Of a DNA stretch of 14,710 nt, positions 3 through 14,710 are shown piece after piece. The position numbers and the translations under genes are program-made. Position 1 is the stretch's first letter, and each line of letters starts with the position of its first letter. The DNA comes from a virus. Its lineage: Duplodnaviria > Heunggongvirae > Uroviricota > Caudoviricetes. The notes below the pieces were generated by a model. That model was given only the letters and a program-made list of their open reading frames with translations, searched no databases and was not told the origin of the DNA. The stretch lies in the IMG/VR virus record IMGVR_UViG_2534682094_000013. One strand, 5' to 3'.

Positions 3-410
3 CATGTGAAAAATGAACGCGTTAACCGTTCAGCAAGCTGGCAGTATATCGGTGCAGGTGATGATCGCATCGTTCTTTCTGGTGTGCTTTATCCTGAAAT
101 TACTGGCGGCGAAGTGTCGCTGTCGCTGCTGACCACGCAGGCGTATACCGGACGCCCCTGGCCTCTGATTGATGGCGTCGGGCAGATTTACGGCATGTAT
201 GTCCTGACCGAAACGAGTACGACCCGCTCTGAGTTTGATCGCTACGGTAAGGCGAAAAAGATAGAATTTTCACTAACCCTTGAACGCTGTGATGAGGATT
301 TGCGGGAACGCCTGCAATCCTCATCATTCAGCGATATGCTGTCCGGCTTCAAAGATAAGGTGACATCATCTCTTAACAGCGCGGCCAGTTCAGTTAAAGG
401 GCTGTTCTGA
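3..410 (+). CDS. gpU-like phage tail protein, 5'-partial (frame open to window start)
   Basis: ORF 6..410 translation has P2 gpU-family motifs (VLYPEITGG...GRPWPLIDGVGQIYGMYVL...EFSLTLERCDE). The frame is open from position 3, so the N-terminus lies outside the window. Family assignment is from memory. Confidence 0.6.
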   Translation, partial: HVKNERVNRSASWQYIGAGDDRIVLSGVLYPEITGGEVSLSLLTTQAYTGRPWPLIDGVGQIYGMYVLTETSTTRSEFDRYGKAKKIEFSLTLERCDEDLRERLQSSSFSDMLSGFKDKVTSSLNSAASSVKGLF

Positions 411-419
411 TTAACGCAA

Positions 420-445
420 AACCGCTAATGGTCAGATTAGCGGTT
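420..445. terminator. Hairpin between convergent gpU-like gene and G; possible bidirectional terminator
   Basis: Perfect 10-bp inverted repeat AACCGCTAAT (420-429) / ATTAGCGGTT (436-445) with 6-nt loop. Followed by CTTTCT on the + strand and by TTTTGCGTT on the - strand. Confidence 0.5.
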
Positions 446-531
446 CTTTCTGAAAGTGTTTCTCTGGAGCTGATAAAAACGTATTCCTCCTGAGAAGATT
501 AAAATTTCTTATCAGGGAGCAGGAGAATAGC

Positions 532-942
532 CTACGCCTCCGGCAGTTCAGGCCAGATGACATCCGGTGCGGTGCTGGTATCTGTTGCCGTCACCGCGTC
601 GATATAATCCAGCACAACGTTAAGTCGGGTAGTTTCTTCTTGCGTCAGTTTGCGCCCGGCCTGCAGCTTTAACTGAATCACGCTGATATTGACCATTGCT
701 GCGTCTATCAGCGACTGTTTTTTCTGTTCAGCGTCAGCTACCAGTTCATCATGAGAACGTTCCGGAGTGGGCGGCGCAGTAAATCCCCCGTCTGAATACG
801 CCCAGCCGATTCCGGGCTGCTCACTGATATCAGAAATATTAATGAGCTGTAGATTATCCGGCACAGTGAATTCAGCCTCGCCATCCCAGGCAATTACATT
901 CACAACCATCCCATTTTCAATAACTGCATATGACGCATTCAT
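532..942 (-). CDS. Tail fibre assembly protein (gpG/Tfa-like)
   Basis: Track ORF 532..966. Start is taken at the ATG at 942..940, which overlaps the TAA stop of H (TAATG). Translation MNASYAVIENGMVVNVIAWDG... resembles phage tail fibre assembly proteins and sits immediately downstream of the fibre gene. Confidence 0.8.
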   Translation of the reverse strand: MNASYAVIENGMVVNVIAWDGEAEFTVPDNLQLINISDISEQPGIGWAYSDGGFTAPPTPERSHDELVADAEQKKQSLIDAAMVNISVIQLKLQAGRKLTQEETTRLNVVLDYIDAVTATDTSTAPDVIWPELPEA

Positions 943-2843
943 TATGCAAACTCCTCGATAATACAAATCCCTGCAGCGCCTTTCCCGCCCGTCATACTGG
1001 CTCCGCTATAACCAGCATCGTATGCACCACCACCGCCTGAACCATATGCCTTACCGCTAACACCACCGCCAGCGCCTGCGCGTCCACCGCCGCCCCAGTG
1101 CGATGTTCCGCCTTCACCGCTGACGCTGATATTCCCGGACTGACCGTCGCCTCCATTTCCACCAGTGATGTTGATACCGCCAGTACTTGGCACACCGCCG
1201 TTACCACCGTTCGTGTTTGTGACTCCTACTTTCCCGCCGCCTTCACCGCCAGGGGCTATTACCGTTCCGAACGAGCTATCACCGCCCTTGAGGCCGTTCG
1301 TCGCACCAACACCGCCGCCCCCACCTGCGCCGATAGTGACAGGATAACTATCCTTCGTCAGGATCAGCGTGACAATTGCTGTTCCCCCAGCCCCACCGCC
1401 AGCACCGAAAAACGTTTCGTTATTGGATGTAGCCTGGCAGCCGCCCCCACCGCCACCGCCGCCCGTTATTGTGACCCTGATTCGTTTTGTTCCTGGCGTC
1501 GGGGTGTACGTACCTGATGACGTGAAAATTCGAGTGTTTACAAGGCGTCCAACATATCCGTTTGAATCGCTCAGGCCAAGGTCAGCAGTGGTAGGTTTAA
1601 TATGTGAACTGTAAATTACATAGACCGCTCCATCTGTCAGGCCTGTCGGTTTATTCGCTGTATAAGTTGGTGATGTATGAATCGTTACGCTGGCGTTACT
1701 GGTATAATCCCACTGGATATTTACACCCGTGGCGTAACCACCTATTTCAACATAAACATCATAGGTATCACCGGATGTATTCACCCATGCAAAATTAGTA
1801 AATCCAACCGATGTCCGTCGCCATAACGCACCAGTAAGACCTTTTGGATTCCCATTTCCCGCACGAAGAACAAGTTCAGATATACCAGCCTGCATAGGGG
1901 AGTTAACATTATATCCAGAACCACCAATCAGGCTTATGTAAACTACGGAACTTGCCTGTGGCATGGTTACAGTTGCCAGCTTGAACCATCCTGCACCACC
2001 AATAAAAGACATGGTTGTTGAATTTGTTGCACCAATATTGCGCAGGAATAATCTTTTATCAGGAATATCCGCACCGTTCTGATCTTTCTGAAGACGTTTC
2101 TCAGCATTGTCATAGGCAGACTTCACCGCTTTCGGTGTTGCGGCCAGCGTTTCAGAAGTGCTATTGGTGGCGCTACTGAGCTGGACAAGACCTTTTCGCG
2201 CTGTGGTCGCGTCCTGTGCGGTATATTTCCCGTTAGCAAGGTCATATGCTGTCTTTACCGCCTTTGGCGTTGCCGCAAGCGTTTCAGAATCGCTGTTGGT
2301 TGCGCTGCTTAACTGAGTAAAACCTTTTGCGGTCAGCGATGCATCCGGGTGTCGTCGTGACTGTTCGTGTTCTGAGATTTTGTCATCCACATATTTACGG
2401 GTCGCCAGTACCACCGACGGGTCGATTTTCAGCGTGATGGCTTCGGTATTCGAGACAGCCAGAATCATGCGGATAGTCTGGGTACGACCACTGCCTTCCT
2501 GCAACTGCGGTTTGTACGTTTCCGGGCAATTCGCCACCGCAATGAGTACGCCTTCATCATCATAAAGCCCAATCTCACGGATCCAGAATCCTCCCTCGTT
2601 TTCAGGGATAATTTGTTCCGCAATAATCTGGCTCTGATTGTTAGGGTCAACACTCAGAAGATTCAGCGGTGCAATGCGTTTCTGGTTAATCAGTTTTGTT
2701 TGTGCAGGGTCTGGTGTTGGTAACACACCATTTGCATCACCAACGGCCATTTGCGTCAGATTCAGCTTACTGCCGAGCATCGTCGCGTTAGCCAGTCGTG
2801 CCGCGCCCTGATTAGTCAGAATGGCGTAGTATTTCACTGTCAT
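942..2843 (-). CDS. Tail fibre protein gpH (P2-type N-terminal domain, glycine-rich C-terminal domain)
   Basis: 633-aa intact ORF. The N-terminal third matches P2 gpH as I recall it (GGFWIREIGLYDDEGVLIAVAN, EHEQSRRHPDASLTAKGFTQLSSATNSTSETLAATPKAVK). The C-terminal roughly 200 aa are Gly-rich, including an octa-glycine run. The ATG at 2843 overlaps the stop of I. Confidence 0.9.
   Translation of the reverse strand: MTVKYYAILTNQGAARLANATMLGSKLNLTQMAVGDANGVLPTPDPAQTKLINQKRIAPLNLLSVDPNNQSQIIAEQIIPENEGGFWIREIGLYDDEGVLIAVANCPETYKPQLQEGSGRTQTIRMILAVSNTEAITLKIDPSVVLATRKYVDDKISEHEQSRRHPDASLTAKGFTQLSSATNSDSETLAATPKAVKTAYDLANGKYTAQDATTARKGLVQLSSATNSTSETLAATPKAVKSAYDNAEKRLQKDQNGADIPDKRLFLRNIGATNSTTMSFIGGAGWFKLATVTMPQASSVVYISLIGGSGYNVNSPMQAGISELVLRAGNGNPKGLTGALWRRTSVGFTNFAWVNTSGDTYDVYVEIGGYATGVNIQWDYTSNASVTIHTSPTYTANKPTGLTDGAVYVIYSSHIKPTTADLGLSDSNGYVGRLVNTRIFTSSGTYTPTPGTKRIRVTITGGGGGGGGCQATSNNETFFGAGGGAGGTAIVTLILTKDSYPVTIGAGGGGGVGATNGLKGGDSSFGTVIAPGGEGGGKVGVTNTNGGNGGVPSTGGINITGGNGGDGQSGNISVSGEGGTSHWGGGGRAGAGGGVSGKAYGSGGGGAYDAGYSGASMTGGKGAAGICIIEEFA
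2109..2318 (-). repeat. Tandem 44-codon repeat inside H (two copies of the ...QLSSATNS(D/T)SETLAATPKAVK(T/S)AYD... motif)
   Basis: Protein residues 176-201 and 220-245 are near-identical, and the underlying DNA copies (2241..2318 and 2109..2186) are clearly related. Confidence 0.6.
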
Positions 2844-3403
2844 GCGTTTACTCTCAGATTATCAATTAAATGAATGACCGGGGCAGGGAAATAATCCCCT
2901 TCGACAATAATGGACTCCGGGGTGTAGGGATAAACCGTCAGGGCATCGCCGTGATAGCATCCCGTACCAACGAAAATATTTCCGTTCACACTCAGGCTGA
3001 TCGCCAGCCCTGTCAGATGGCGACTTACTGGTTTTGCATCCGCAATAAGGCGCTCAAGTTCCTGATACATTTCATCTGTGATGCCCTGATCAAGTACTCC
3101 GACAACAATGCGAAATGTTCCCGGCTCCTCGTTGAGTTGCCACCACTCCTTTACTTCAATCAGGTAGCCGAGAGGCTCCACGGCTCTTCGCAGTGCGCTG
3201 ATGGTCCCTTTGTGTCGGTGTATCAGCCATGCATCACGAATAACCTGTCGCTTTGTCTCTTCCGGCCAGTTGCGATCCCAGCGGTCAACGGAAAAGCCCA
3301 GGCGAGATAAGGCAGCAGATGCACCGGGCAGGTGTCCGGCGACCACAGCGTGTTGAGGTCTACCGGAATGTCTGTAATGCGTGTTCCGACGGCTTCGGCA
3401 CAA
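2840..3403 (-). CDS. Baseplate assembly protein gpI (largest frame; true N-terminus in another frame starting near 3447)
   Basis: Translation SVDRWDRNWPEETKRQVIRDAWLIHRHKGTISALRRAVEPLGYLI... matches P2 gpI. The gpI N-terminus (MSNSLLPP...NTLWSPDTCPVHLLPYLAWAF) is in the 3223..3480 ORF frame, so a 1-nt frameshift lies near 3290-3310. Confidence 0.75.
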   Translation of the reverse strand: MCRSRRNTHYRHSGRPQHAVVAGHLPGASAALSRLGFSVDRWDRNWPEETKRQVIRDAWLIHRHKGTISALRRAVEPLGYLIEVKEWWQLNEEPGTFRIVVGVLDQGITDEMYQELERLIADAKPVSRHLTGLAISLSVNGNIFVGTGCYHGDALTVYPYTPESIIVEGDYFPAPVIHLIDNLRVNA

Positions 3404-3439
3404 CGCATGAAATTGCTGGCTGATGGTGGTAACAACGAA

Positions 3440-4331
3440 TTACTCATTGCGTCCACCTTCGCTGATGGTGAATGACTCACAGCGCGCCGCCTGTATGTCG
3501 CTGATGGCCATATTCTGTGTGGGTTCGATTATCTCCACGCGTTGCACACCGTGCACATGCAGTGCGGCAGCAATGGCGGACAACGCCACGTCCTGACCGA
3601 TAAGTCCCTGCTCAGCCAGCCACTTCCTGAACGACGATTCCGCCGCAGCCAGAATAGGTTCGGATTCCGGGCCGGGGTAAAAGTACAGTTTTGCATTCAG
3701 CCGCCATGTCACGATTCTGGCGCTCTGTACGGTCAGGCGGTCGGCCACCGGGCGGGTATCCTCTGCATTCAGAACGGCGCGAACGGTATTAAGCAACGCC
3801 TCCGTTGCTGTGCCGTCGCCCTCAGTGGACAGGATGGAAACCGTCACATTTGCCGGAGACGGGCTGATAGCCCGCGCATCACGCACCAGACCGCTGGCGC
3901 TGCGGGCAAAATACTCGTATGCACCTGACGGGCCAGCAACACTCAGGCCGTCGTACGCCCGTGCGCCCGCAGTCTCAGCGAGGTGTCGCTTCCATCACCG
4001 CGTCGGTGGTATCCGTTGCCGGAGTGATAACCAGGCGCTTTGTGTTCATATTGCCTGCGAGGTTGTCCAGGTCTGTCCCGGCGCTGTGGCTTAACATCAG
4101 GCGCGTGCCCCTCATTACCCGCTGGCGTAACAGCATTTCACGAAACGACATGGTTTGAGCGATAACGTTAAGGGGTTCCGATTCCAGCTCCAGCGCGGCG
4201 GAAACGGCTTCACGCTGTTCGGCGGGATAGGACGCAATCATCATGGCTTTTGTGTCAGCCAGAATTGCTTCAAAGTCAGGCTCCGCGATGATGGCGGGTT
4301 CCGGTAACTGGGAAAGGTCAACGGCGGGCAT
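3440..4331 (-). pseudogene. Baseplate assembly protein gpJ, split by at least two frameshifts
   Basis: N-terminal fragment 3975..4331 (MPAVDLSQLPEPAIIAEPDFEAILAD...) and C-terminal fragment 3440..3886 (...RPVADRLTVQSARIVTWRLNAKLYFYPGPESEPI...) both match P2 gpJ. The middle lies in a third frame, and the 892-nt span is not a multiple of 3. Confidence 0.8.
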
Positions 4332-4399
4332 GATTTACTCCCTCAGCGTGATGGTTAACTCAACATTCTGCATGGTCTGCATGACAGTGCCCGACAGTG

Positions 4400-4684
4400 T
4401 CACCCCGGCGGGCCTCCCGCTTTCCAGACAACGTCGATGGCATCCAGGGCAATGCGGGGTTCCCATCGTGTCAGCGCAATCACGGCAGCACTCATGCATT
4501 GCAGACGCGTGGTGTTATTCATGGGTTCGTCAATCAAATCAGGCACAAGGCTGCCATATTCCCGTCGCATAACCCGGCTGGCCAGCGGGGTGGTCAGGAT
4601 GTCCCTGACTGACTGTTTCAGGTGCTCCATATCATTCAGGTTTCCCGTTCCGTCCGGGTTCATTCCTGTGTAGCGGGTTGTCAC
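4400..4684 (-). CDS. Baseplate protein gpW (gp25-like); C-terminus truncated by a frameshift, true stop at 4335..4337
   Basis: MTTRYTGMNPDG...SVRDILTTPLASRVMRREYGSLVPDLID matches gpW. The ORF ends at the C4 run 4403..4406; adding one C restores ...GVTLSGTVMQTMQNVELTITLRE ending 6 nt before the J start. Confidence 0.75.
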   Translation of the reverse strand: MTTRYTGMNPDGTGNLNDMEHLKQSVRDILTTPLASRVMRREYGSLVPDLIDEPMNNTTRLQCMSAAVIALTRWEPRIALDAIDVVWKAGGPPG

Positions 4685-5277
4685 TGCGGGCCTCCTGTCG
4701 AATCGCTGCCACCTTTAACACCACCGTGTTTATGCGTATGCACTGTGATGCCGTTTGAGGTGAAATCGCCGCCGCTGTGCGTGATATTGCCGCTCATCTT
4801 TCCTCCTTTTGTGACGTCAAGCGTCGCTGTTCTCAGAAGGTTTGTGCATTCCACGACGGGCGTGTCCAGTGTCACGCTGACGGATGCCTGTAAAGTGGCC
4901 GTTTTCATGCCGCTGGCGCTCAGTGCGCCTGCGTCCGCGTCGTAGCGGAACACCGCGCCATCCGGCGCGCTGATCACGATTTCTTTCAGGCTTTTGCCGG
5001 GGGCCGGACTGGCATCACTCCACAGGCTGCCAATTATCATGGCGGTTTCCGGGTTGCCGCCAATGCAGGCAATTACCACCTGTTCGCCTGGTGATGGCGG
5101 CAGCCACACATTGAAGGCTCCCGCGCGCGTGGTGTTCCAGCGCAACCAGCCTGTTTCCAGTTCGCCGCTGCGAACGCGCACGCACCAGGATTCCTCATCA
5201 ACTTCAGAGATGATCCCGGTCGGATGATGTTGCTCAGCAGTCGCATGAGTTCTGCGCTCACCGTACAGCCTCCGCAA
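4681..5277 (-). CDS. Baseplate spike gpV; N-terminus appears frameshifted (probable true start GTG at 5261)
   Basis: C-terminal 170 aa match gpV (...GNITHSGGDFTSNGITVHTHKHGG). The gpV-like N-terminus (MSAELMRLLSNII...) is in the 5073..5261 frame and joins the main frame near 5215. Confidence 0.75.
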   Translation of the reverse strand: MRRLYGERRTHATAEQHHPTGIISEVDEESWCVRVRSGELETGWLRWNTTRAGAFNVWLPPSPGEQVVIACIGGNPETAMIIGSLWSDASPAPGKSLKEIVISAPDGAVFRYDADAGALSASGMKTATLQASVSVTLDTPVVECTNLLRTATLDVTKGGKMSGNITHSGGDFTSNGITVHTHKHGGVKGGSDSTGGPQ

Positions 5278-5887
5278 TCCGGCCCAGCACCGTGTTATAA
5301 ATCAGGCGCTCATCTGCCTGGCTGATACCCAACAGCTCACGTACCGGGTAATCGGTGAAAATGCCCGGCGCAACCTGATCGCGCTCACCGAACTGATGAA
5401 CGCGGCAATACGTGCGGCCACGCCGCTGTAACCCACCGTCACACCGGAAGCATCTGCACGGGCTTTCAGGTAGCGGGCGGTGCGCAGTTTTACGAACATG
5501 GGGACGCGCTTTGTGCTGTCCTGGTTGATGCGCCGGGTGCGTATTTCCAGAAAACGGTCGATGTCATCCCGGTAAAACGTGCGGATATTGTTTTTATCCT
5601 CATCCCACCCGGTAATGGTTCGCCCGTATTTCCCCGTGTCGTGATGCCAGTTTTTCAGCGTGCGTGCTTCGTTATTCCAGATAAAGCGAATGCGTCCTGT
5701 ATCCGGGTTACGCGGCGTCTGCGTGGTGTCCAGCGTCCCGTCCGGCGCTTTCTGTGACCGGATACGGCCTGCTGGGCGCGGCGTAAATCCTGTGCCAGCT
5801 TTCTGGCGATGTTATTGATGGCCTGCTGATTCAGGCTGTCGCGGATGCCTCAAAGGTTTCATCCACGCGGGTGAATGCCTTATCCAT
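5258..5887 (-). pseudogene. Tail completion / virion morphogenesis protein gpS-like, multiple frameshifts
   Basis: ATG at 5887 overlaps the R stop (ATGGATAA). By hand translation, gpS-like segments (MDKAFTRVDETF / ...IRDSLNQQAINNIARKLAQDLRRAQQ / ...MFVKLRTARYLKARADASGVTVGYSG... / ...LIYNTVLGRIAEAVR*) lie in different frames. No intact ORF covers the span. Confidence 0.65.
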
Positions 5888-6342
5888 CGCTTTCACCCCA
5901 CGTCACATCCTGGAATACATGCGACCAGTCGCCTTCGGAAGAGGCAGGCGGGGTTTTGGCTCGGCAGGTGTTCTGCCTGCGGTGTGCCCTGACTGCTGCG
6001 CTGATGCGAACGCGTTCCCGCAGGGGGAGCGTAAACAGGAGATCGGCGCTGTCATCGTCATTGATAACGGCGGAGAATTTGATGTCCTGATTACGCTCGG
6101 TTGAGCAACAACTGTGGCTGATTTTCGGATAACCACGCCAGCAGCGGCAGCGTGAGGTCGTCCAGCTCCCCGGCGTAATCCATGACAAACATCACCATCT
6201 GATAGCGGTAAACAAACGAGGGCGTTTCTCCGGTCGTTTCAATGTTGCCGCTCTCCACGAAAATGGTGAATTTTTCCGGGTTAGCCTGACACCATCGGCA
6301 TGAACGGGTCATGGCTTCACGCAGGGAATCAGTTTTCAGCAT
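5880..6342 (-). pseudogene. Tail completion protein gpR, one frameshift
   Basis: N-terminal fragment 6091..6342 (MLKTDSLREAMTRS...LPLLAWLSENQPQLLL) matches gpR. It continues in the 5880..6188 frame (ERNQDIKFSAVINDDDSADLLFTLPLRE...) after a 1-nt deletion near 6105-6112. Confidence 0.75.
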
Positions 6343-6619
6343 GGTTGTTGTCCTCGTTGTTCAGTCGTTGCAGCCTGCGCTGTTCCAGTAATTCAATGGC
6401 CCGTTTATCAGCGTTACAGGTTTCCAGTGCATCCAGAAGGCGGTCGCCCCATATACCGAGATTTCCCCATGTGGGAGTGTCAGGGAAGGGGGGAGGCGTT
6501 ACCGGTATGGTCAGCGTCTGCGGTATAAGCCGGACTGACGGCGCTGGCAGTGGCGCGTTCTGCGTGCCTGCGCAACCTGTCAGTAAAACGAGCGTCAGGC
6601 AAAGCGTGGGCGCATTCAT
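6329..6619 (-). CDS. lysC: Outer-membrane spanin lipoprotein (LysC / Rz1-like)
   Basis: Start taken at the ATG at 6619. Signal peptide with lipobox (LLTGC), Pro-rich mature region. Begins embedded out of frame in lysB and extends past its end. Confidence 0.7.
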   Translation of the reverse strand: MNAPTLCLTLVLLTGCAGTQNAPLPAPSVRLIPQTLTIPVTPPPFPDTPTWGNLGIWGDRLLDALETCNADKRAIELLEQRRLQRLNNEDNNHAEN

Positions 6620-6887
6620 CTTTTGCAATATCGTTGCGTAGCTGTTCACGTCTGGCCTCTCCGTCCTGATTTCTCTGTTGATTTTCCACGCGGAGTTGCG
6701 CCAGCACCTGCTGCATATCCTGTACCCCGGTGCTGATGATATTCAGGGTGTCGACGGTACTTTTCAGGGCGCTGGCCTGCGCTTCGTTTCTGGCGTTCTC
6801 CCGGCCCAGCGACCACGACAGACGCATGGATGTTCCCCATGCGGCAATCAGAAGGAAAGCGACACCCAGCGTGGGCCAGAGCTTCAT
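6480..6887 (-). CDS. lysB: Inner-membrane spanin (LysB / Rz-like)
   Basis: Start taken at the ATG at 6887 (MKLWPTLGVAFLLIAAWG...), giving an N-terminal TMD followed by a charged, probably coiled-coil region. The track ORF extends upstream to 7031 into the endolysin gene. Confidence 0.7.
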   Translation of the reverse strand: MKLWPTLGVAFLLIAAWGTSMRLSWSLGRENARNEAQASALKSTVDTLNIISTGVQDMQQVLAQLRVENQQRNQDGEARREQLRNDIAKDECAHALPDARFTDRLRRHAERATASAVSPAYTADADHTGNASPLP

Positions 6888-7276
6888 GCCGGATAGGCTC
6901 CGTGTGGTAACTGAAAATGCGGTCCGTCTTTCAGGGTCTTCCAGTCGCCGCCCCATTCCACCGGAATATTCAGTTCCCGGCTGGCCTGTCTGAATGCTGC
7001 TGCGATTTTTTCGTACAGCGGCCATTCCCATGACACCTGGCTGCCGATATAAGCCACAACATCCACGGCATGTCCCGTAAGGTGGCGGCTGTTCATGGTC
7101 TGGCTCTTACCCGTGGCCACAAGTTGCTTCTGGCGGTAACGACTGCGCAACCCTTCGGTGATACCAAAATCCACTTCCGAAATTTCCAGTGCCCGTCGGG
7201 TCACTTTCACCAGATCAGGATTTACGCCCTGCAAATTCTTTTCGCTCCGGCTGCTGAATTTAAATGTGTTGCTCAT
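6884..7276 (-). CDS. Endolysin, peptidase M15-like (L-alanyl-D-glutamate peptidase type)
   Basis: 130-aa intact ORF with SRHLTGHAVDVV and a distal His, as in M15 endolysins. Sits between holin and spanins; start overlaps holin stop. Confidence 0.65.
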   Translation of the reverse strand: MSNTFKFSSRSEKNLQGVNPDLVKVTRRALEISEVDFGITEGLRSRYRQKQLVATGKSQTMNSRHLTGHAVDVVAYIGSQVSWEWPLYEKIAAAFRQASRELNIPVEWGGDWKTLKDGPHFQLPHGAYPA

Positions 7277-7491
7277 TCGTCCTTCTCCTTCACCCTGCGA
7301 TTAAAGGCTGCAATAACCTTGTCGCGTGCTTTCTCTGCGCCCATAAAACCGATTGATGCGCCGATAAACGTCACGGCATCTTCAGGAAAACCGAAGAAGC
7401 GCAACGACCCGGCCACGGCCATGGCAAGAACGCCGCACGCCAGCGATCCCGTTACGGTCTGAACCAGTGTTCGTCCGTCATAAAGACTCAT
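7273..7491 (-). CDS. Holin (class II-like, two TMDs)
   Basis: 72 aa with two hydrophobic segments (TVTGSLACGVLAMAVAGSL, AVTFIGASIGFMGA) and a charged C-terminus (EKARDKVIAAFNRRVKEKDE), immediately upstream of the endolysin. Confidence 0.6.
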   Translation of the reverse strand: MSLYDGRTLVQTVTGSLACGVLAMAVAGSLRFFGFPEDAVTFIGASIGFMGAEKARDKVIAAFNRRVKEKDE

Positions 7492-7595
7492 CAGCGCGGA
7501 AATGCTGACCGCCGCGCCTCTGCATACACCGTTGGCAGGTGGTCAAAGAGCCACGCAATAACCTGCTCTGTGATCCCTGTTTGAATGGTGCTCAC
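7491..7595 (-). CDS. Hypothetical 34-aa ORF between X and holin (GTG start, GGAG RBS); possible holin partner or detached holin N-terminus
   Basis: GTG at 7595 lies 6 nt downstream of GGAG. Its TGA stop overlaps the holin ATG (TGATG). Not in the supplied ORF track (under 60 aa). Confidence 0.3.
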   Translation of the reverse strand: MSTIQTGITEQVIAWLFDHLPTVYAEARRSAFPR

Positions 7596-7597
7596 TG

Positions 7598-7798
7598 CTA
7601 CTCCCCCCACAACTGAATCATTTCTCGTTTCTTCTTCTCCGGCTCCGGCATCTCCACTTCCTGCCCGGCGTCCAGAAATACCTGCTGACAGAGTCCGGGG
7701 TTGGCATCCAGCACCTTTTCGGTGACGCCCTGCGTCGTGCCGTAGTACCGGAAACAGAGCGAATCCACGGTGTCGCCTTCCAGTGCCTTCACTTTCAT
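7598..7798 (-). CDS. Tail protein X (gpX, LysM-like)
   Basis: MKVKALEGDTVDSLCFRYYGTTQGVTEKVLDANPGL matches P2 gpX. The track starts at GTG 7804; the ATG at 7798 fits the P2 N-terminus better. Confidence 0.75.
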   Translation of the reverse strand: MKVKALEGDTVDSLCFRYYGTTQGVTEKVLDANPGLCQQVFLDAGQEVEMPEPEKKKREMIQLWGE

Positions 7799-7836
7799 CA
7801 GCACAACTCCGCAAAATTCGCGGGCGGCACAGAATG

Positions 7837-8287
7837 TCAGAGATGGCCCAGCTCACATCCGCCACAAATCCGATGTCTGTATATCCAGGCGTCCGCCCGG
7901 CGGTCGCCCTTGTCCGTTGTGTCTGCATCACGATAACGCTCCAGAATCAGGGCGCGCGTGGCGGTATAAACAGCATTGCGCCAGTGCCAGAGATTGACGC
8001 TTTCTCCGTTAATTACGGGTGCCGGAACATCGGCCAGCGTCTGATGGCCAGCGCCTGCTGTTCCTGCTGCCAGCTTCCAGCTCGCGGGTAACGTGTGCCA
8101 CGCCCCGGTGGCTATGCAGCAGGCGGGAGGTGGTCACCGCCCGGCAGTCGTACCGCCAGACGCAGTCCGCAGCACAATATCCGGCCAGAATGCACCCGCT
8201 GAAATCGGGTATCCCATCATCGGTATCGGTGATGTCGTCCTCTGCGGGTCCGGGGTTGGTTCTGGCAACCATACTCATGGGGTTCAC
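7837..8287 (-). pseudogene. Head completion protein gpL-like, frameshifted
   Basis: The position between M and X, and a Cys-containing N-terminal fragment (8009..8287: ...DFSGCILAGYCAADCVWRYDC...), suggest gpL. A second frame (...LWHWRNAVYTATRALILERYRDADTTDKGD...ICGGCELGHL*) ends at 7837. The exact junction is unresolved. Confidence 0.5.
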
Positions 8288-8372
8288 TCCTGAAAAAATC
8301 GGGCGGTGGGTGCGCGGTGTAAACGGTCACGGAGTCAAACCGGAACACCGCGCACGCCGCCCGCTGACGGGG

Positions 8373-9153
8373 TCAGTCGTTAACCGCGCTTCGCCTTCTG
8401 CGTCGCGGTGGTTTTTCGTGTTGCAGGCTTCCGCGTTGTCTTTTTACTTTTGCTGCTTTCGTCCTGCGCCTGCTGTGCGCTGGCGTCTTCTGGTCGGCTG
8501 CGGAATCGGCTTTTTTCAGGGCGCGGGAAAGGGTTGCAATCTCGCGTTTCACACCTGCGTTCGGGTTCAGGTGCATGCTTCGCGCAGCAGCTTCAGTGAA
8601 GGCCATGTGTCGCATCTCAGCCACGCGGGCAAAGGCGCACGCTTGCATAATTTGGCGCGACTTCGTCCGGCATGTCCTGGTCGGTGACAATCTCCGGAGG
8701 GTGTCCAGGGTTCGATAAAGGCGGAAAATCCGCGTCGGCATCCGCCCGGCCTGCGTCAGTACCGGTTCAGATTTCTTCGGTCAGACGTGGCAGCAGTACG
8801 GCCAAAGTTATCCGGCATATGAGGTTTGACGGACCACATACGCCCATACGCACGCAGCGGAAGATCGCCCAGTCAATCGCCCACACCATCAGCGTGGCAA
8901 TCACTTCATCCTGCTGCCCGCCGTCAGCCTCCAGCGTTCCCTCAATCCAGCCGGAAAAATCCGGCAACAACTCTTTTTTGATGGCGGCTTTCGCGCTTCT
9001 GGCCTGTACGCCCTTAAGCCGGGCCTGTGCCAGACGCAGACGATACAGCACCTCTTCATGCGCGGTACGCGCGGCGTGGTCCACGCCTTCATTCGCCCGG
9101 CCTGCGCGCTGTGCCATCACGTTCTGCCAGTGTTGCTGTGCAGGAGTAATCAT
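8373..9153 (-). pseudogene. Terminase small (endonuclease) subunit gpM, at least two frameshifts
   Basis: N-terminal fragment 8767..9153 (MITPAQQHWQNVMAQRAG...KKELLPDFSGWIEG...) and C-terminal fragment in 8373..8741 (...HLNPNAGVKREIATLSRALKK... with a basic tail) both match P2 gpM. The middle lies in another frame. Confidence 0.8.
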
Positions 9154-9170
9154 TTGTTCTCTCCGTTACA

Positions 9171-9189
9171 GGCGGGCATGATGCCCGCC
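9171..9189. other. GC-rich hairpin in the N-M intergenic spacer
   Basis: GGCGGGCA-TGA-TGCCCGCC: 8-bp perfect stem with 3-nt loop, between the capsid gene stop (9216) and M start (9153). No U-tract on the transcribed strand. Confidence 0.35.
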
Positions 9190-9215
9190 GTGAGTTGATT
9201 AGCTGTCGGCGAACT

Positions 9216-10250
9216 TCAGACCAGTGACCATGCGCACTTGCCATAGTCTTCAACGACATAAGCGTCATTGATGGACTGGTAGGTGGCGATGCGGTTGTAT
9301 TCCGGCTCGTCTTTCATCAGGCGACGCATTGAGCCTCTCTGCCAGTAAATTGACAGGTTGTTGAATGAGGTGATCAGCATCGTTGCATCCGGGAAGAACG
9401 GCGCAAGGAATACATCCAGCCCGCCAATGGTGCGCGATGACAGGATGAGCTGTCCGGCGAGTAATTCCGCATTGGGATTCTGGCCGCTGATGCTGTTCAG
9501 CACGGGCAGGCGTAGCGAGTTAAACAGGTTGCGCCCCATAATCACCACGAGGTCGTCAGCTTCCTTGTGCCATTCATCCAGCAGGGATGAGCGTGCGTCC
9601 TGTACCAGTGCATCAGCGTTCGCATACTTACCCGCGTGCGCCACGGTGTTGTCCATGTTGCGGGAGGTCAGCGTCACGTCATTCATAACGCGCTCGCTGG
9701 CGTCGGTTCTGATGTGCTCCAGCCAGCCCACGTTAACGTCCTGAAGCAGCTTGTTGGTGCTGAAGTTGGACTCATCCGCGTGAGACGTGCCGTTGAAACC
9801 GATCATGATGCGGTCAAGCGCCACCTGTCGGGCAATCTGTGCGCTGATGCGGGACTGAAAATCAGGGTGTGCCGACCAGGCATCAAGCTTCGGATACGAA
9901 ATAAACGTGTCGTAGTTCACCTGTTCGCACTGGTATTTGCGGTTTTTCAGATCAACCACGTTATTCGGGTTACGGCGTTTTGTGCCGTCATAACTGGTAT
10001 TCGTGCGTGCAATTGGCCCGGTGGTGTCCAGGAGGATTTTTTCGCCTTTCTGGTCGGTCACGCCGATCACGTTAATTCTTTTTGTAAATTCGGTACTTTC
10101 CTTTGAGGCGTTTTCAAAACGCTGCTGTACCGAGGGTTCCACGGTAAATCGCGATACCAGTGCAGATACCGGGATATTGTTAAGCGACGCCTGCTGCGCC
10201 ATATAGCAACCCAGCTTGTTGCGGGTAATATCTGACATCACCAGATTCAT
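9216..10250 (-). CDS. Major capsid protein gpN
   Basis: Intact ORF with strong P2 gpN similarity throughout (FTVEPSV...QKGEKI...NRKYQCEQVNYD...LQDVNVGWL...DDLVVIMGR...MLITSFNNLSIYWQ...YVVEDY). Start is taken at ATG 10250 (AAGGAG 8 nt upstream), not the track's 10304. Confidence 0.9.
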   Translation of the reverse strand: MNLVMSDITRNKLGCYMAQQASLNNIPVSALVSRFTVEPSVQQRFENASKESTEFTKRINVIGVTDQKGEKILLDTTGPIARTNTSYDGTKRRNPNNVVDLKNRKYQCEQVNYDTFISYPKLDAWSAHPDFQSRISAQIARQVALDRIMIGFNGTSHADESNFSTNKLLQDVNVGWLEHIRTDASERVMNDVTLTSRNMDNTVAHAGKYANADALVQDARSSLLDEWHKEADDLVVIMGRNLFNSLRLPVLNSISGQNPNAELLAGQLILSSRTIGGLDVFLAPFFPDATMLITSFNNLSIYWQRGSMRRLMKDEPEYNRIATYQSINDAYVVEDYGKCAWSLV

Positions 10251-10272
10251 AAAAATTTGCTCCTTTGTCTTA

Positions 10273-11047
10273 TCAGAAGTCAGCCAGCTGGTCGGAGGCT
10301 GCACCTGTTGCGGTGAACCGGTTCTGCGGATCGCCGTCCTGCGTGCGCAGTTTTTCCTTCAGTGCTGTCAGCTCTGTGGTCAGTGACGTGATTTTCTGGC
10401 GGTCCTGCTGATGGCGGGTTTCCAGCACATTAAAACGGTCGATAATGTCGGCCTGTGACGTTGCGACCCTTCCACGCTTCCTGAATACGGGAGAAACTGG
10501 CGTCATCCGCTTTGCGGCCACGACCAATAATCCCCATACGCGGTTAAACCACTGGGTGCCTTCTTCCTGCGTTGTTCGATTCGATATTCGACTCATGCCG
10601 GAACGCTCCCCTGACGTTGAAGTCATAGCTACGTTGTGTGCCGAAACAGCGTCGTGCCCAGGCTGCGGGGTGTCGGTCATGCCAGCCCGCAGTAGGCCCC
10701 CGTAGGACTGGGTCAGTCATACTGGAATAGATTTTCTTGCCGTCCGCGACAAGCTGCTTCATGCGCTCGGTCGGTTCGATTTCTGCATACAGCGCAGTAC
10801 GTCCGGCCAGCGGACCTTCCGTAATGTCTTCCGTACTCAGTGCGGTGACATCGCCCATTGCGGAAAATTCGCTTGACGGGCATGGCGAGAGATAGTGCTC
10901 AACGTTCACGCGGGCAGCGTAAACATCCGGGTTGAAGTTCTCGGCGGCTTCACGCAGATGTACCGGGCTGATTTCGCGGCCATCAACAGTTGATCCGGAG
11001 ACAGCCACGCGAAACTTTTTGCGGGATGTCTTTTTTTCATTAGCCAT
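10273..11047 (-). pseudogene. Capsid scaffold protein gpO, frameshifted
   Basis: N-terminal fragment in 10544..11080 (MANEKKTSRKKFRVAVSGSTVDGREISPVHLREAAENFNPDVYAARVNVEHY...) and C-terminal fragment in 10273..10680 (...LTTELTALKEKLRTQDGDPQNRF...) match gpO. The centre is out of frame, and the 775-nt span is not a multiple of 3. Confidence 0.8.
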
Positions 11048-11201
11048 AGTTTTTGCCCCTCTGACTGGTTCTTCAGTCATGATGGCAAAGCGTAACAGGC
11101 TGACACAAAGGGCTTTTGTTGTAAGAAAACGGCCAGAACAGGGGGTTAAGGAGAACAGTTTCGCGCGCGGGTAATCTTCCTGTAATTACTCAGGGGGAGC
11201 A
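11048..11201. promoter_or_regulatory. Divergent intergenic region between O (-) and P (+); expected site of the two late promoters
   Basis: 154-bp gap between divergently oriented operons. Contains an imperfect dyad ACAAAGGGCTTTTGT (about 11104..11119) and a strong SD (GGGGGAG) before the P start. In P2 both late promoters here depend on Ogr; no consensus match is claimed. Confidence 0.4.
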
Positions 11202-12940
11202 ATGATTCAGGACGCTTTTGTGCGCCAGCGTGCGCGGCAACTTTACTGGCAGGGTTATCCGCCCGCAGAAATATCACGTCTGATGGGAATAAACCCGAAC
11301 ACGATTTATGCGTGGAAAAAACGCGACCAGTGGGATGAAACGCCACCCGTGCAGCGTGTCACGCAGTCCATCGATGCGCGCCTCATCCAGCTCACTGAAA
11401 AACAGAATAAAACAGGTGGTGACTTCAAGGAAATAGACCTGCTGACCCGGCAGCTTAAAAAACTGCATGATGGCCAGCCGGATGTGATGGCCGCAGGAAA
11501 GAAAGGCCGGGCGAAAAAACTTAAAAATCATTTCACGCCGGAACAGATTGCCGCACTGCGGGAAAAAATCATCAGCAGGCTGGAGTGGCATCAGCGGGGC
11601 TGGTTTGACTCCCTGACACTTTGCAGGGAAGCCGGGATACGTAACAGGATGATCCTGAAATCCCGACAGATTGGGGCGACCTGGTATTTTGCACAGGAAG
11701 CCTGCTGATGGCGCTGCGTGACGATGTGGCGCAACCTTACCAGCGTAACCAGATTTTTTTGTCTGCGTCGCGTCGTCAGGCGTTCCAGTTTAAAAGCATT
11801 ATTCAGAAGGCCGCGGCTGAAGTTGATGTGGAGCTGAAAGGGGGCGATAAAATCATCCTCTCCAACGGCGCAGAGCTGCATTTTCTCGGCACTTCTGCTG
11901 CGTCGGCACAGTCCTATACGGGCAATTTTTATTTTGATGAATTTTTCTGGGTCAGTCGCTTTGCCGAACTGCGCAAGGTGGCTGGCGCTATGGCAACCCT
12001 CAGCGGACTGCGGCGCACCTACTTCTCCACGCCATCCACCGAAACGCACGAGGCTACGCCTACTGGAACGGCGACCGCTGGAACGAGAAAAAGGCCCGCA
12101 TAAACGCCAGCGTTTTTCTGTGGACTGGAAAACGCTGCATAACGGGCTTATCTGCCCTGACCGGACTGGCGGCAAATTGTCACGCTGGAAGATGTGGTTA
12201 ACACGGCTGGAAACACACCAATATCGACGAAATTCGTGATGAAAACACCGAAGACGAGTTCCTCAATCTCTATATGTGTGAGTTTGTCCGCGAAGGGGAA
12301 TCGGCATTTAACCTGAATATCCTGATTGGCTGCGGTGTTGACGGATACGACGACTGGAAAGACTGGAAACCTTTTGCTCCCCGCCCATGGGGAATCGTCC
12401 GGTATGGATTGGGTATGACGCAAACGGCAGCAGTGGCAACGGCGACAGCGGCGCTGTGTCCGTGGTGGTTCCTCCGGCTGTTCCTGGTGGCCGTTTTCGA
12501 ACGGTGGAACGCGACGCGTTCAGGGGCTGGAGTTTGAAGAACAGGCCAGAGTCATTGAAGAGTTCACGTGTCGCTACAACGTGGAACACATCGGCATTGA
12601 TGTGACGGGCGGGAACGGGGAGGCTGTTTATCAGATAGTGAACGTTTTTCCCTGCGCTATTCCGTACACCTTCACGCTGTCATCAAACGGTCGCTGGTAC
12701 TGAAAATGCTGCAAATAATGCGTGCCGGCGTGGGAATACGATCGCGCCGAACGCGAGCTGGTCGCGGCCTTTAACGCCGTGCGTAAGGTGAAAACACCGG
12801 GCGGCTTTATCACTTACGAAACGGACCGCGCGAGGGGGATCAGCCACGGCGACCTTGCGTGGGCAACCATGCTTGCTGTCATTAACGAACCAATTGGCGG
12901 CGAAGGAGAAAACGAGCGTTTCACGGTTATGGAGTTCTGA
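11202..12940 (+). pseudogene. Terminase ATPase (large) subunit gpP, at least five frameshifts
   Basis: Fragments 11202..11708, 11708..12103, 12274..12537, 12387..12605 and 12722..12940 each match consecutive parts of P2 gpP (QLYWQGYPPAEI..., NQIFLSASRRQAFQFK...GNFYFDEFFWV..., MCEFVREGESAFNLNILIGCGVDGYDDWKDWKPFAPRP, GNRPVWIGYDANGSSGNGDS..., ...SHGDLAWATMLAVINEP...). The 1739-nt span is not a multiple of 3. Confidence 0.85.
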
Positions 12941-13983
12941 TGAGCAGAAAAAATAAAAAAGTGCGCATGAGTTCACGCATTGATCTCGCTGATGCGCTCA
13001 GGAAAGAATCGTCGCTCAGTGCATTCACATTTGATGGCCTTATCGCCTGACCGGGCATGACCTGCTGGATAATATGTACTGTGCTGATAACGGGCGGTGG
13101 TATGAAACCCCGGTGGACTGGTACGGTCTGGCAAGAGCTGCCCGGCAAACGTCCTGGCATCAGTCTGCGCTTTACTTTAAGCGCAATGTATTGCTCGGTT
13201 GCTACATCCCGCACCCGCTGCTTTCCCGGCAGGATTTCTCGGCGTGGCGCTGGACTGGTTTGTGTTCGGTAACGCATTCCTTGAGCTTCGGAGCAATATG
13301 CTCGGCGAACCACTTAAATTACGGCACGCACTGGCGAAATACATGCGACGCGGAAGCGATCTTGAATCATGGTGGTATGTGCAGGATGGCAAGGACGCGT
13401 TTCAGTTTCGCCCTGGCAAAGTGTGCCACCTGATGAATCCGGACATTAACCAGGAAATTTACGGCATGCCGGAATATCTTGGCGCATTACTCTCGGCCAG
13501 CCTGTCTCATTCGGCGGACATGTTCAGAAAACTGTATTACGACAATGGATCCCACGCCGGGTGCATCATCTACATCGGTGCAGCGCAGGTAAACCGCGAA
13601 AGCATGGACTCCCTGAAAGAAACGTTACAGGGTGCGCGTGGTGGTGGGCGTTTAAAAACGTGCTCATCCATGCGCCCAACGGGGGCAAAGAGGGGGTGCA
13701 AATTTTGCCGTTCCAGCAGATCACCGCAAAGGATGAGTTCATGAATGTTAAGGCGGCATCCCGTGATGATGTGCTGGCTGCGCACCGCGTTCCGCCGCAA
13801 CTGATGGGGGCGATGCCGGGCGAAAAAAGTGCGTTTGGTGATGTGGAGAAGGCCGCGCGGGTTTACGCAATTAACGAGCTGATGCCCGTCATGGAGGCCA
13901 TGAAGCACATCAATGACTGGCTTGGCGAAGAGGTGATCCGCTTTAACCCTTACGCACTGTTAGACACCCAGCCCACATCCTGA
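12940..13983 (+). pseudogene. Portal protein gpQ, at least three frameshifts
   Basis: ATG at 12940 overlaps the P stop (ATGA). gpQ-like segments lie in frames 12940..13048 (MSRKNKKVRMSS...), 13074..13433 (...NGRWYETPVDWYGLA...YFKRNVLLGCYIPHPLLSRQDFS), 13199..13744 (...DWFVFGNAFLE...NPDINQEIYGMPEYL...YYDNGSHAG...) and 13561..13983 (...KNVLIHAPNGGKEGVQILPF...AAHRVPPQLMG...). Confidence 0.85.
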
Positions 13984-14009
13984 CGCGCTTCGCTTGTCTG
14001 CTGCTTCGC

Positions 14010-14034
14010 CGGGGCATAAAAAATTTATGCCCCG
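14010..14034. other. Perfect hairpin just downstream of the portal gene (possible terminator or protein-binding element)
   Basis: CGGGGCATAAA-AAA-TTTATGCCCCG: 11-bp perfect stem, 27 nt after the Q stop. No flanking T-tract on either strand. Confidence 0.4.
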
Positions 14035-14407
14035 ACTCTCCAGCTCCTGTATCAGTCAGATAATTTCACGACGCTTTCCTGCTTATTGCCATCATCGACA
14101 GTCAGACTCTTACGCAATCCCACCGCGTTGACTGCATGTTCTCGCCGTCTCAGTGCGATTTTGACGGCCTTACCTTTCACCCCATCAAATCAAAAGCCCT
14201 CACGTCTTTTTCACGCTCAGCGTGAGAAATATAGCCATTCTGTTGTGTCGCTGCGACATCGTTCAGGGGATGCTATTTACCCCCTGAAACGCGGGCTGTT
14301 CCCCCGTCACCTGCGCGCAGAAAAAACGCGTTTTTTTGTGCACGCACGGATCCTTGACGGATCCAGCCGCCATGCGGGCCGGAAGGGCAAAAAGTCGTTC
14401 AAAAAAA

Positions 14408-14434
14408 TTGTGCAAATTTGTGCACTATTGTGCA
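14408..14434. repeat. Three direct TTGTGCA repeats phased at exactly 10 bp
   Basis: TTGTGCA at 14408, 14418 and 14428 (aTTGTGCAaat TTGTGCActa TTGTGCAaac), at the point where composition switches to AT-rich. Confidence 0.5.
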
Positions 14435-14557
14435 AACCGAACGGAGTGTTTATTTATAGAAAAATTGAGCCTATGTATACGACGTTGCTTATAAATACAT
14501 CCCTGACTGTTATGTGAAAATATGCAAAGAAAATTACATGCTATGGAGATGAGAGTT

Positions 14558-14597
14558 ATAACGACCTTTTCTACTTATTTGTAAAAGAGGTCGTTAT
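14558..14597 (+). promoter_or_regulatory. Hairpin that would sequester the SD and start codon of the downstream small ORF
   Basis: 5' arm ATAACGACCTTTT (14558..14570) pairs with 3' arm AAGAGGTCGTTAT (14585..14597): 13 bp with one G-U pair, 14-nt loop. The 3' arm contains AAGAGG and the AT of the ATG at 14596. Confidence 0.4.
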
Positions 14598-14691
14598 GTA
14601 TAAAGTTAAATTATTTTTTACTCTTGATATGTGTAAAAAATATAGCTTTGATGTTTATATTTTATTAGAATACATTATTTATCCTCTTTAA
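14596..14691 (+). CDS. Hypothetical 31-aa peptide (MYKVKLFFTLDMCKKYSFDVYILLEYIIYPL)
   Basis: ATG preceded by AAGAGG at 6-nt spacing; 31 codons to TAA at 14689..14691, in the AT-rich terminal segment. Not in the supplied track (under 60 aa). Could be a chance ORF. Confidence 0.3.
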   Translation: MYKVKLFFTLDMCKKYSFDVYILLEYIIYPL

Positions 14692-14710
14692 TGATTTTGT
14701 TATAGTCAAA

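Follow-up and report, generated by a model that had tools for sequence, protein, structure and literature searches.

The reference map for the tail genes considered here is that of phage P2. In the annotated P2 record (NC_001895), V-W-J-I-H-G is followed by fun(Z) on the opposite strand and then by FI-FII-E-T-U-D-ogr. FI to U point in the same direction as V to G, and D lies directly after U within the F operon. The variable accessory locus right after G, the Z/fun hotspot, is bounded by an intrinsic terminator. In P2-like phages, this hotspot has been described as the seat of fibre swaps and of DNA invertases, accompanied by inversion of the genes next to it (bioRxiv 10.1101/2024.10.15.618418).

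The P88-type phages (Xuanwuvirus, Peduoviridae) include P88, 500465-2, 503458, 520873, P884B11 and Citrobacter phiSM. P88 has been described as an inducible phage (PMC5285337) and phiSM as an active one (PMC6456863). In the orientation used throughout this text, P88 has D on the minus strand, FI, FII, E, E', T and U on the plus strand, and an invertase gene on the minus strand. An invertible fibre segment separates this gene from a minus-strand run of the assembly gene, H, I, J, W and V. Like the G segment of Mu, the invertible segment encodes another version of the fibre C-terminus, along with a second assembly gene, and it is flanked by gix-like sites (TTATCNAAAACCTCGGTTTACAGGAA). An inversion of the FI to U operon is not discussed in the papers on P88 and phiSM (PMC5285337, PMC6456863). 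In PhiR44_2 (PV340564), known here from its complete genome record, with E. coli C as host, U directly faces G and there is no invertase.

The DNA analyzed here, referred to as the window, is a 14,710-nucleotide stretch of a tailed-phage sequence (IMG/VR record IMGVR_UViG_2534682094_000013). Its initial annotation placed a gpU-like tail gene head-on against the fibre assembly gene G, and proposed an inverted tail operon, a rearrangement or deletion breakpoint, or a collapsed Z/fun hotspot. The P2 map on which this was based agrees with the annotated P2 record.

Tail genes of the window and their order in relatives

The gene at the left edge of the window reads without a stop from base 3 on the plus strand to a TGA at 408-410 (Table 1). 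Its product matched Phage_P2_GpU over profile positions 23-120 of 120 (Pfam, E=8e-30), with 103.4 bits against a curated gathering score of 27.5, and matched P2 gpU in BLASTP with 47% identity over 97 aa (E=4e-34). Since the product aligns with residues 28-162 of the E. coli gpU WP_000979954, which is 162 aa long (98.5% identity), the left edge of the window cuts off the start of the gene. Its first 27 codons would lie further left, and the GTG at base 6 is not the true start of gpU. In relatives with U ends that are 96-100% identical, T precedes U, and T, E', E, FII and FI all lie upstream of U on the same strand. By comparison with these relatives, gpU is predicted to be the last gene of an FI-FII-E-E'-T-U operon.

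The product of the gene facing U matched the Caudo_TAP family (Pfam, E=1.4e-21) with 77.5 bits, where the gathering score is 22.1. It is 27% identical to P2 G and 95.6% identical to the 136-aa protein of an E. coli prophage that is 96-98% identical to the window (L004). This gene lies directly downstream of the fibre gene, its ATG at 942..940 overlaps the fibre stop codon, and it closes the V-W-J-I-H-G operon. Both gene calls therefore pass the HMM tests, and a gpU-like gene does converge on the assembly gene with a 121-bp spacer, as had been claimed.

The fibre protein consists of a collar domain, PF03406 repeats and a glycine-rich C-terminal domain (PF21722). Upstream of H in the same operon are I, J, W and V, with I, J and W each split by single-base deletions, as their tblastn pieces lie in different frames. 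Beyond these genes, the minus strand carries S, R, lysis genes, X, L, M, N and O, and the plus strand carries P and Q. This gene content is that of a P2-family structural region. No homologues of D, ogr, FI, FII, E or T were detected by tblastn in the whole window, which bears out the earlier remark that no D follows U. At the other end of the window, homology to L004 within 13984-14710 stops at 14437, past the portal gene. Other E. coli prophages matching 13984-14710 carry an AAA family ATPase gene next, so that the right edge of the window reaches into the counterpart of the P2 old/tin accessory hotspot.

Table 1. Positions of the features at and around the U/G junction in the window
Feature	Position	Strand	Evidence
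gpU-family tail protein gene, 3' 135 codons	3..410	+	PF06995
Perfect hairpin AACCGCTAAT-GGTCAG-ATTAGCGGTT	420..445	both	fold energy, shuffles, conservation
86-bp spacer segment particular to the invertase-less variant	446..531		homology searches
Tail fibre assembly (chaperone) gene, 136 aa, functional equivalent of P2 G	532..942	-	PF02413
Tail fibre gene, P2 H equivalent, 633 aa	942..2843	-	PF12571, PF03406, PF21722
Baseplate genes I, J, W, V	2843..5277	-	PF09684, PF04865, PF04965, PF04717, PF18715

The window is closest to P88. Positions 1-449 are 96.2% identical at the DNA level to the end of the P88 U gene, and 3005-11793 are 96.2% identical to Escherichia phage P88. The two share about 96% identity over these parts, the second of which runs from I through the terminase region, and the same overall order. 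At its right end, the window matches E. coli chromosomes with 99% identity. These matches assign the window to an E. coli prophage of the P88-like kind (Xuanwuvirus-type, Peduoviridae), as judged from 14.7 kb.

Relatives share the arrangement seen at the left edge. The order D on the minus strand, FI-FII-E-E'-T-U on the plus strand, and tfa, H, I, J, W and V on the minus strand is found in PhiR44_2 as well as in P88. E. coli prophages integrated at three chromosomal sites share the same convergent order of D, FI to U and V to G, as do L003, from a prophage lineage that is more distant and differs in its lysis genes, and an IMG/VR contig (L007). A comparison of synteny with relatives had been set beforehand as the test of the arrangement, and the convergent U/G order turned out to be shared, as is normal for the lineage. 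Also, 1311 of 5426 complete E. coli genomes carry a P88-type gpU gene, so the convergent layout is common. We are highly confident that convergent U and G are a normal, common and already annotated feature of the P88-type lineage. This confidence applies to the explanation as a whole, which consists of the layout of the P88-like lineage, an empty gap at the position equivalent to Z/fun, and a fixed fibre.

In this explanation, the FI-FII-E-E'-T-U operon of the P88-like lineage is inverted compared to P2, so that it ends head-on against the end of V-W-J-I-H-G. D and ogr retain their P2 orientation on the far side of FI, divergent from it, and the lack of D after U is due to this location. The idea of an inverted tail operon is thus apt for P88-like phages as a group, in which FI to U are inverted relative to P2, but not as an event specific to this genome. 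In the window itself, U and G can be seen to converge, and D and ogr can be placed only in relatives. These share 95-100% identity with the window at the junction, and from them we infer that T, E, FII, FI, D and ogr lie to the left of the window.

A late promoter motif bears on how D could be expressed. The sequence TGTTGT-N12-AGAAC is present in the divergent O/P promoter region of the window (11117-11139) and also in the 157-bp FI/D intergenic region of four relatives (L001, L002, L004, L005). In P2, the pO and pP promoters share an activator site, which this motif resembles. The resemblance is suggestive of an Ogr-type late activator site serving divergent late promoters. When the FI/D intergenic region was searched for the strict Ogr site TGT-N12-ACA, a match was found only in L003. 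An Ogr-type site in this region would allow separate transcription of D in the P88-type lineage.

The annotated length of D varies among relatives. D is annotated as about 790-800 bp, compared to about 1100 bp, in L012 (10577-11368), L013 (10574-11374) and L015 (570-1358), with a gap of about 400 bp before FI. Therefore, D is truncated or disrupted in part of the lineage.

The gap between U and the assembly gene

The spacer occupies 411..531. It had been described as containing only a perfect hairpin, and this is correct for the perfect 10-bp hairpin itself but leaves out the 86 bp that follow it. The hairpin starts 9 nt past the gpU stop, and its arms (420-429 and 436-445) form 10 perfect pairs around a 6-nt loop. 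On the plus strand, the predicted fold has an energy of -13.9 kcal/mol (z=-3.45), and 0 of 200 shuffled sequences folded as well. On the minus strand, the fold has 12 pairs and an energy of -14.8 kcal/mol (z=-4.1). The hairpin is 100% conserved in P88, PhiR44_2 and Chuche, and exact copies were found in 113 IMG/VR contigs. A scan of species-representative genomes gave no exact match.

The hairpin is kept whatever cargo follows it. Since it is conserved regardless of cargo and has a strong stem on both strands, it is most likely a bidirectional intrinsic terminator. Its U-tracts are weak and short, reading CUUUCU on the plus strand and UUUUGCGUU, which is partly inside the stem, on the minus strand. 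The shortness of these tracts explains why the hairpin at 420-445 was missed when 1-1200 was scanned for consensus terminators and promoters. Five terminator-like hits from the same scan were set aside, as all were within coding sequence. In P88, the same hairpin would also terminate the invertase gene. The hairpin is the conserved left edge of a swappable fibre module and of the variable region that contains it.

To describe this variable region, 117 loci with the exact hairpin, mostly from IMG/VR contigs, were classified by what comes next. A Gin-type invertase gene immediately follows the hairpin in 105 of them. In 11 others, the fibre assembly gene directly faces U (the window type in 7, the PhiR44_2 type in 4), and the remaining locus has a glycosyltransferase after the hairpin. 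In E. coli O157:H7 and APEC prophages, homology ends at the U stop codon, and an acetyltransferase-like or transferase gene lies in the gap. The gap is a site of variable cargo, since relatives hold an invertase and cassette, transferases or nothing there. As in a P2-type Z/fun hotspot, variable cargo lies between the assembly gene and the next tail operon, with conserved flanks. By position, the U/G gap is thus the equivalent of the P2 Z/fun accessory hotspot, and it is empty in the window. It holds only the putative terminator hairpin and 86 bp that probably came in with this fibre module. The collapsed Z/fun hotspot that had been proposed is a fair description of such an empty gap, given the varied cargo of relatives, provided that it is applied at the level of the lineage.

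The 86-bp segment itself is rare. Among the 5426 complete E. coli genomes, only 12 contain it, and it was also found in four IMG/VR contigs, between the same flanking genes. A distant blastn search for its origin against complete E. coli genomes returned the same 12 genomes only. The segment had no match in the phage collection and no exact 25-mer match in the species-representative genomes. Rfam, at gathering thresholds, matched nothing in this segment or elsewhere in the window. A weak, imperfect hairpin at about 485-524 folds no better than shuffled sequences (z of about -1.5 to -1.7). On the minus strand, this weak hairpin is followed by a T5 run (475-479), and together they may be an extra terminator for the V-G operon.

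The fibre module and the inversion switch

The window and P88 are homologous up to position 449, which coincides precisely with the P88 invertase stop codon. Beyond this break, weak similarity returns within H, and full homology at the I gene and beyond. Because the break extends from 449 to H, the swapped module spans the region from the hairpin to the fibre gene. Where P88 has an invertase and an invertible segment between U and the assembly gene, the window has 121 bp, followed by a different module of fibre and assembly gene. PhiR44_2 is like the window in its lineage, in the hairpin after U, in having U face the assembly gene, and in lacking an invertase. It differs in its 253-bp spacer, which is unrelated past the hairpin, and in its fibre and assembly type (H of 2760 bp and G of 528 bp). 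The variable part of the fibre and the assembly gene (525-1582) are a swappable module, 93.5% identical to a silent cassette in the invertible segment of the L003 prophage. The fibre and assembly genes of the window are in this way a close homologue of a cassette from a switch of the Gin-Cin-Pin kind, such as the Mu G segment, the P1 C segment and the e14 P segment.

The window lacks the other parts of such a switch. When the P88 invertase was used as a tblastn query, no serine DNA invertase was found in the window, and there is one assembly gene, with no second, oppositely oriented cassette. Crossover sites were searched for with the core of the 26-bp site, AAACC-NN-GGTTT, allowing up to two substitutions. 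Canonical gix/cix-like sites are present in P88 and L003. In the fibre region of the window (532-2843), the only match was a weak one, CAACTGCGGTTT at 2502, far from the junction between the constant and variable parts of the fibre. That junction (at about 1575-1600 on the minus strand) reads ACTGCTGACCTTGGCCTGAGCGAT where relatives carry a Gin/Cin-type 26-bp site. The left half of this sequence matches the site at 1 of 10 bases and the right half at 5 of 10, with the CCTTGG core kept. Since the window has no invertase, second cassette or intact crossover site, the fibre is fixed and not switchable.

How the fibre came to be fixed is a separate question. A P88-like ancestor could have lost a Gin-type invertase and the alternative cassette between U and G, leaving one fibre and assembly pair frozen in place beside the U terminator. 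The invertase-bearing state is by far the commonest, being found at most of the hairpin loci described above and in about half of a spread sample of genomes with a P88-type gpU. The near identity of 525-1582 to a cassette that is silent within an invertible segment points the same way. Also, the fibre protein retains the motif LGLxD..GYVGR.VNTR.FTSSGTY, which follows the crossover site in L003. On the other hand, no relic of an invertase, gix/cix-like site or second cassette was found in the spacer segment 446-531, and this segment is unmatched outside the 12 genomes and four viral contigs. The degenerate crossover site fits a module swap by ordinary recombination, or a long decay, better than the product of a frozen inversion. 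We give this loss of the switch somewhat less than an even chance, and infer that the module probably arrived or was fixed by ordinary recombination in the conserved flanks and not by simple freezing of an inversion. The history of loss concerns past events only and is compatible with the normal, empty-gap layout preferred above.

Fibre length also differs among otherwise near-identical prophages, with 633 aa in the window, 571 in L012, 745 in L004 and 759 in L013. The Phage_fiber_2 repeats (2103-2348 in the window) align at several offsets in relatives. This variation in length suggests gain and loss of repeat units.

Integrity of the junction and its meaning

A regulatory role for the arrangement was also considered. 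Convergent transcription or antisense read-through could balance expression of the fibre against that of the sheath, tube and tape-measure proteins, with the 86-bp segment encoding a small regulatory element. We think this improbable.

A rearrangement private to this sequence is less likely still. In such an event, inversion of FI to U or a deletion removing D would have produced a defective tail region, and the breakpoint initially proposed would be specific to this genome. In its favour, D follows U in the collinear genomes of P2 and its close relatives, and the many frameshifts in the window are those expected of a decaying prophage. Compared with L004, 2109-14437 contains about 100 indel events, all of which are deletions in the window. 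These events run from 3296 to 14141, are mostly of single bases outside homopolymers, and are dense at 8052-8870 and 10577-10718. By tblastn, they put pieces of I, J, W, S, R, the holin gene, L, O and Q in different frames. The same is probably true of M and P, whose alignments are poor or partial. Such a pattern has the look of long-read assembly errors that were left uncorrected, and not that of genuine pseudogenes. The junction region, in contrast, is free of frameshifts. In addition, P88, PhiR44_2 and many prophages share the convergent order with D intact upstream of FI. A breakpoint specific to this sequence is contradicted by these related phages.

An assembly misjoin or chimera, for which the apparently poor polishing of the rest of the window might speak, is the least credible reading and can be dismissed, since 1-2186 contains no deletions and a single 1-bp insertion compared with L004, and since a 291-bp junction query (330-620) was matched at 98.6-100% identity in 13 records from 12 independent complete genomes among the 5426 from E. 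coli, with the spacer and the same flanking genes also recurring in four IMG/VR contigs.

Some of these 12 genomes contain decayed prophages. L002 and L012 have large deletions, L012 and L013 a truncated D, and L004 a frameshifted terminase. The large internal deletions (L002, 18893-20593; L012, 20254-21827) fuse the fibre gene to a replication endonuclease or J to the terminase. With such deletions in two of the 12 junction genomes, the empty-gap variant is often found in defective prophages. We found no proven viable phage with exactly this spacer, as that of PhiR44_2 differs in being 253 bp.

The P2 reference map fails for a large share of the E. coli prophages that are called P2-like. Since about a quarter of complete E. 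coli genomes carry a P88-type gpU, convergent U and G or a missing D after U should not be taken for damage. Published and annotated genomes already show this layout. The main use of the result is as a caution for annotation. For the P88-type lineage itself, the empty-gap variant means that the fibre inversion switch is dispensable cargo.
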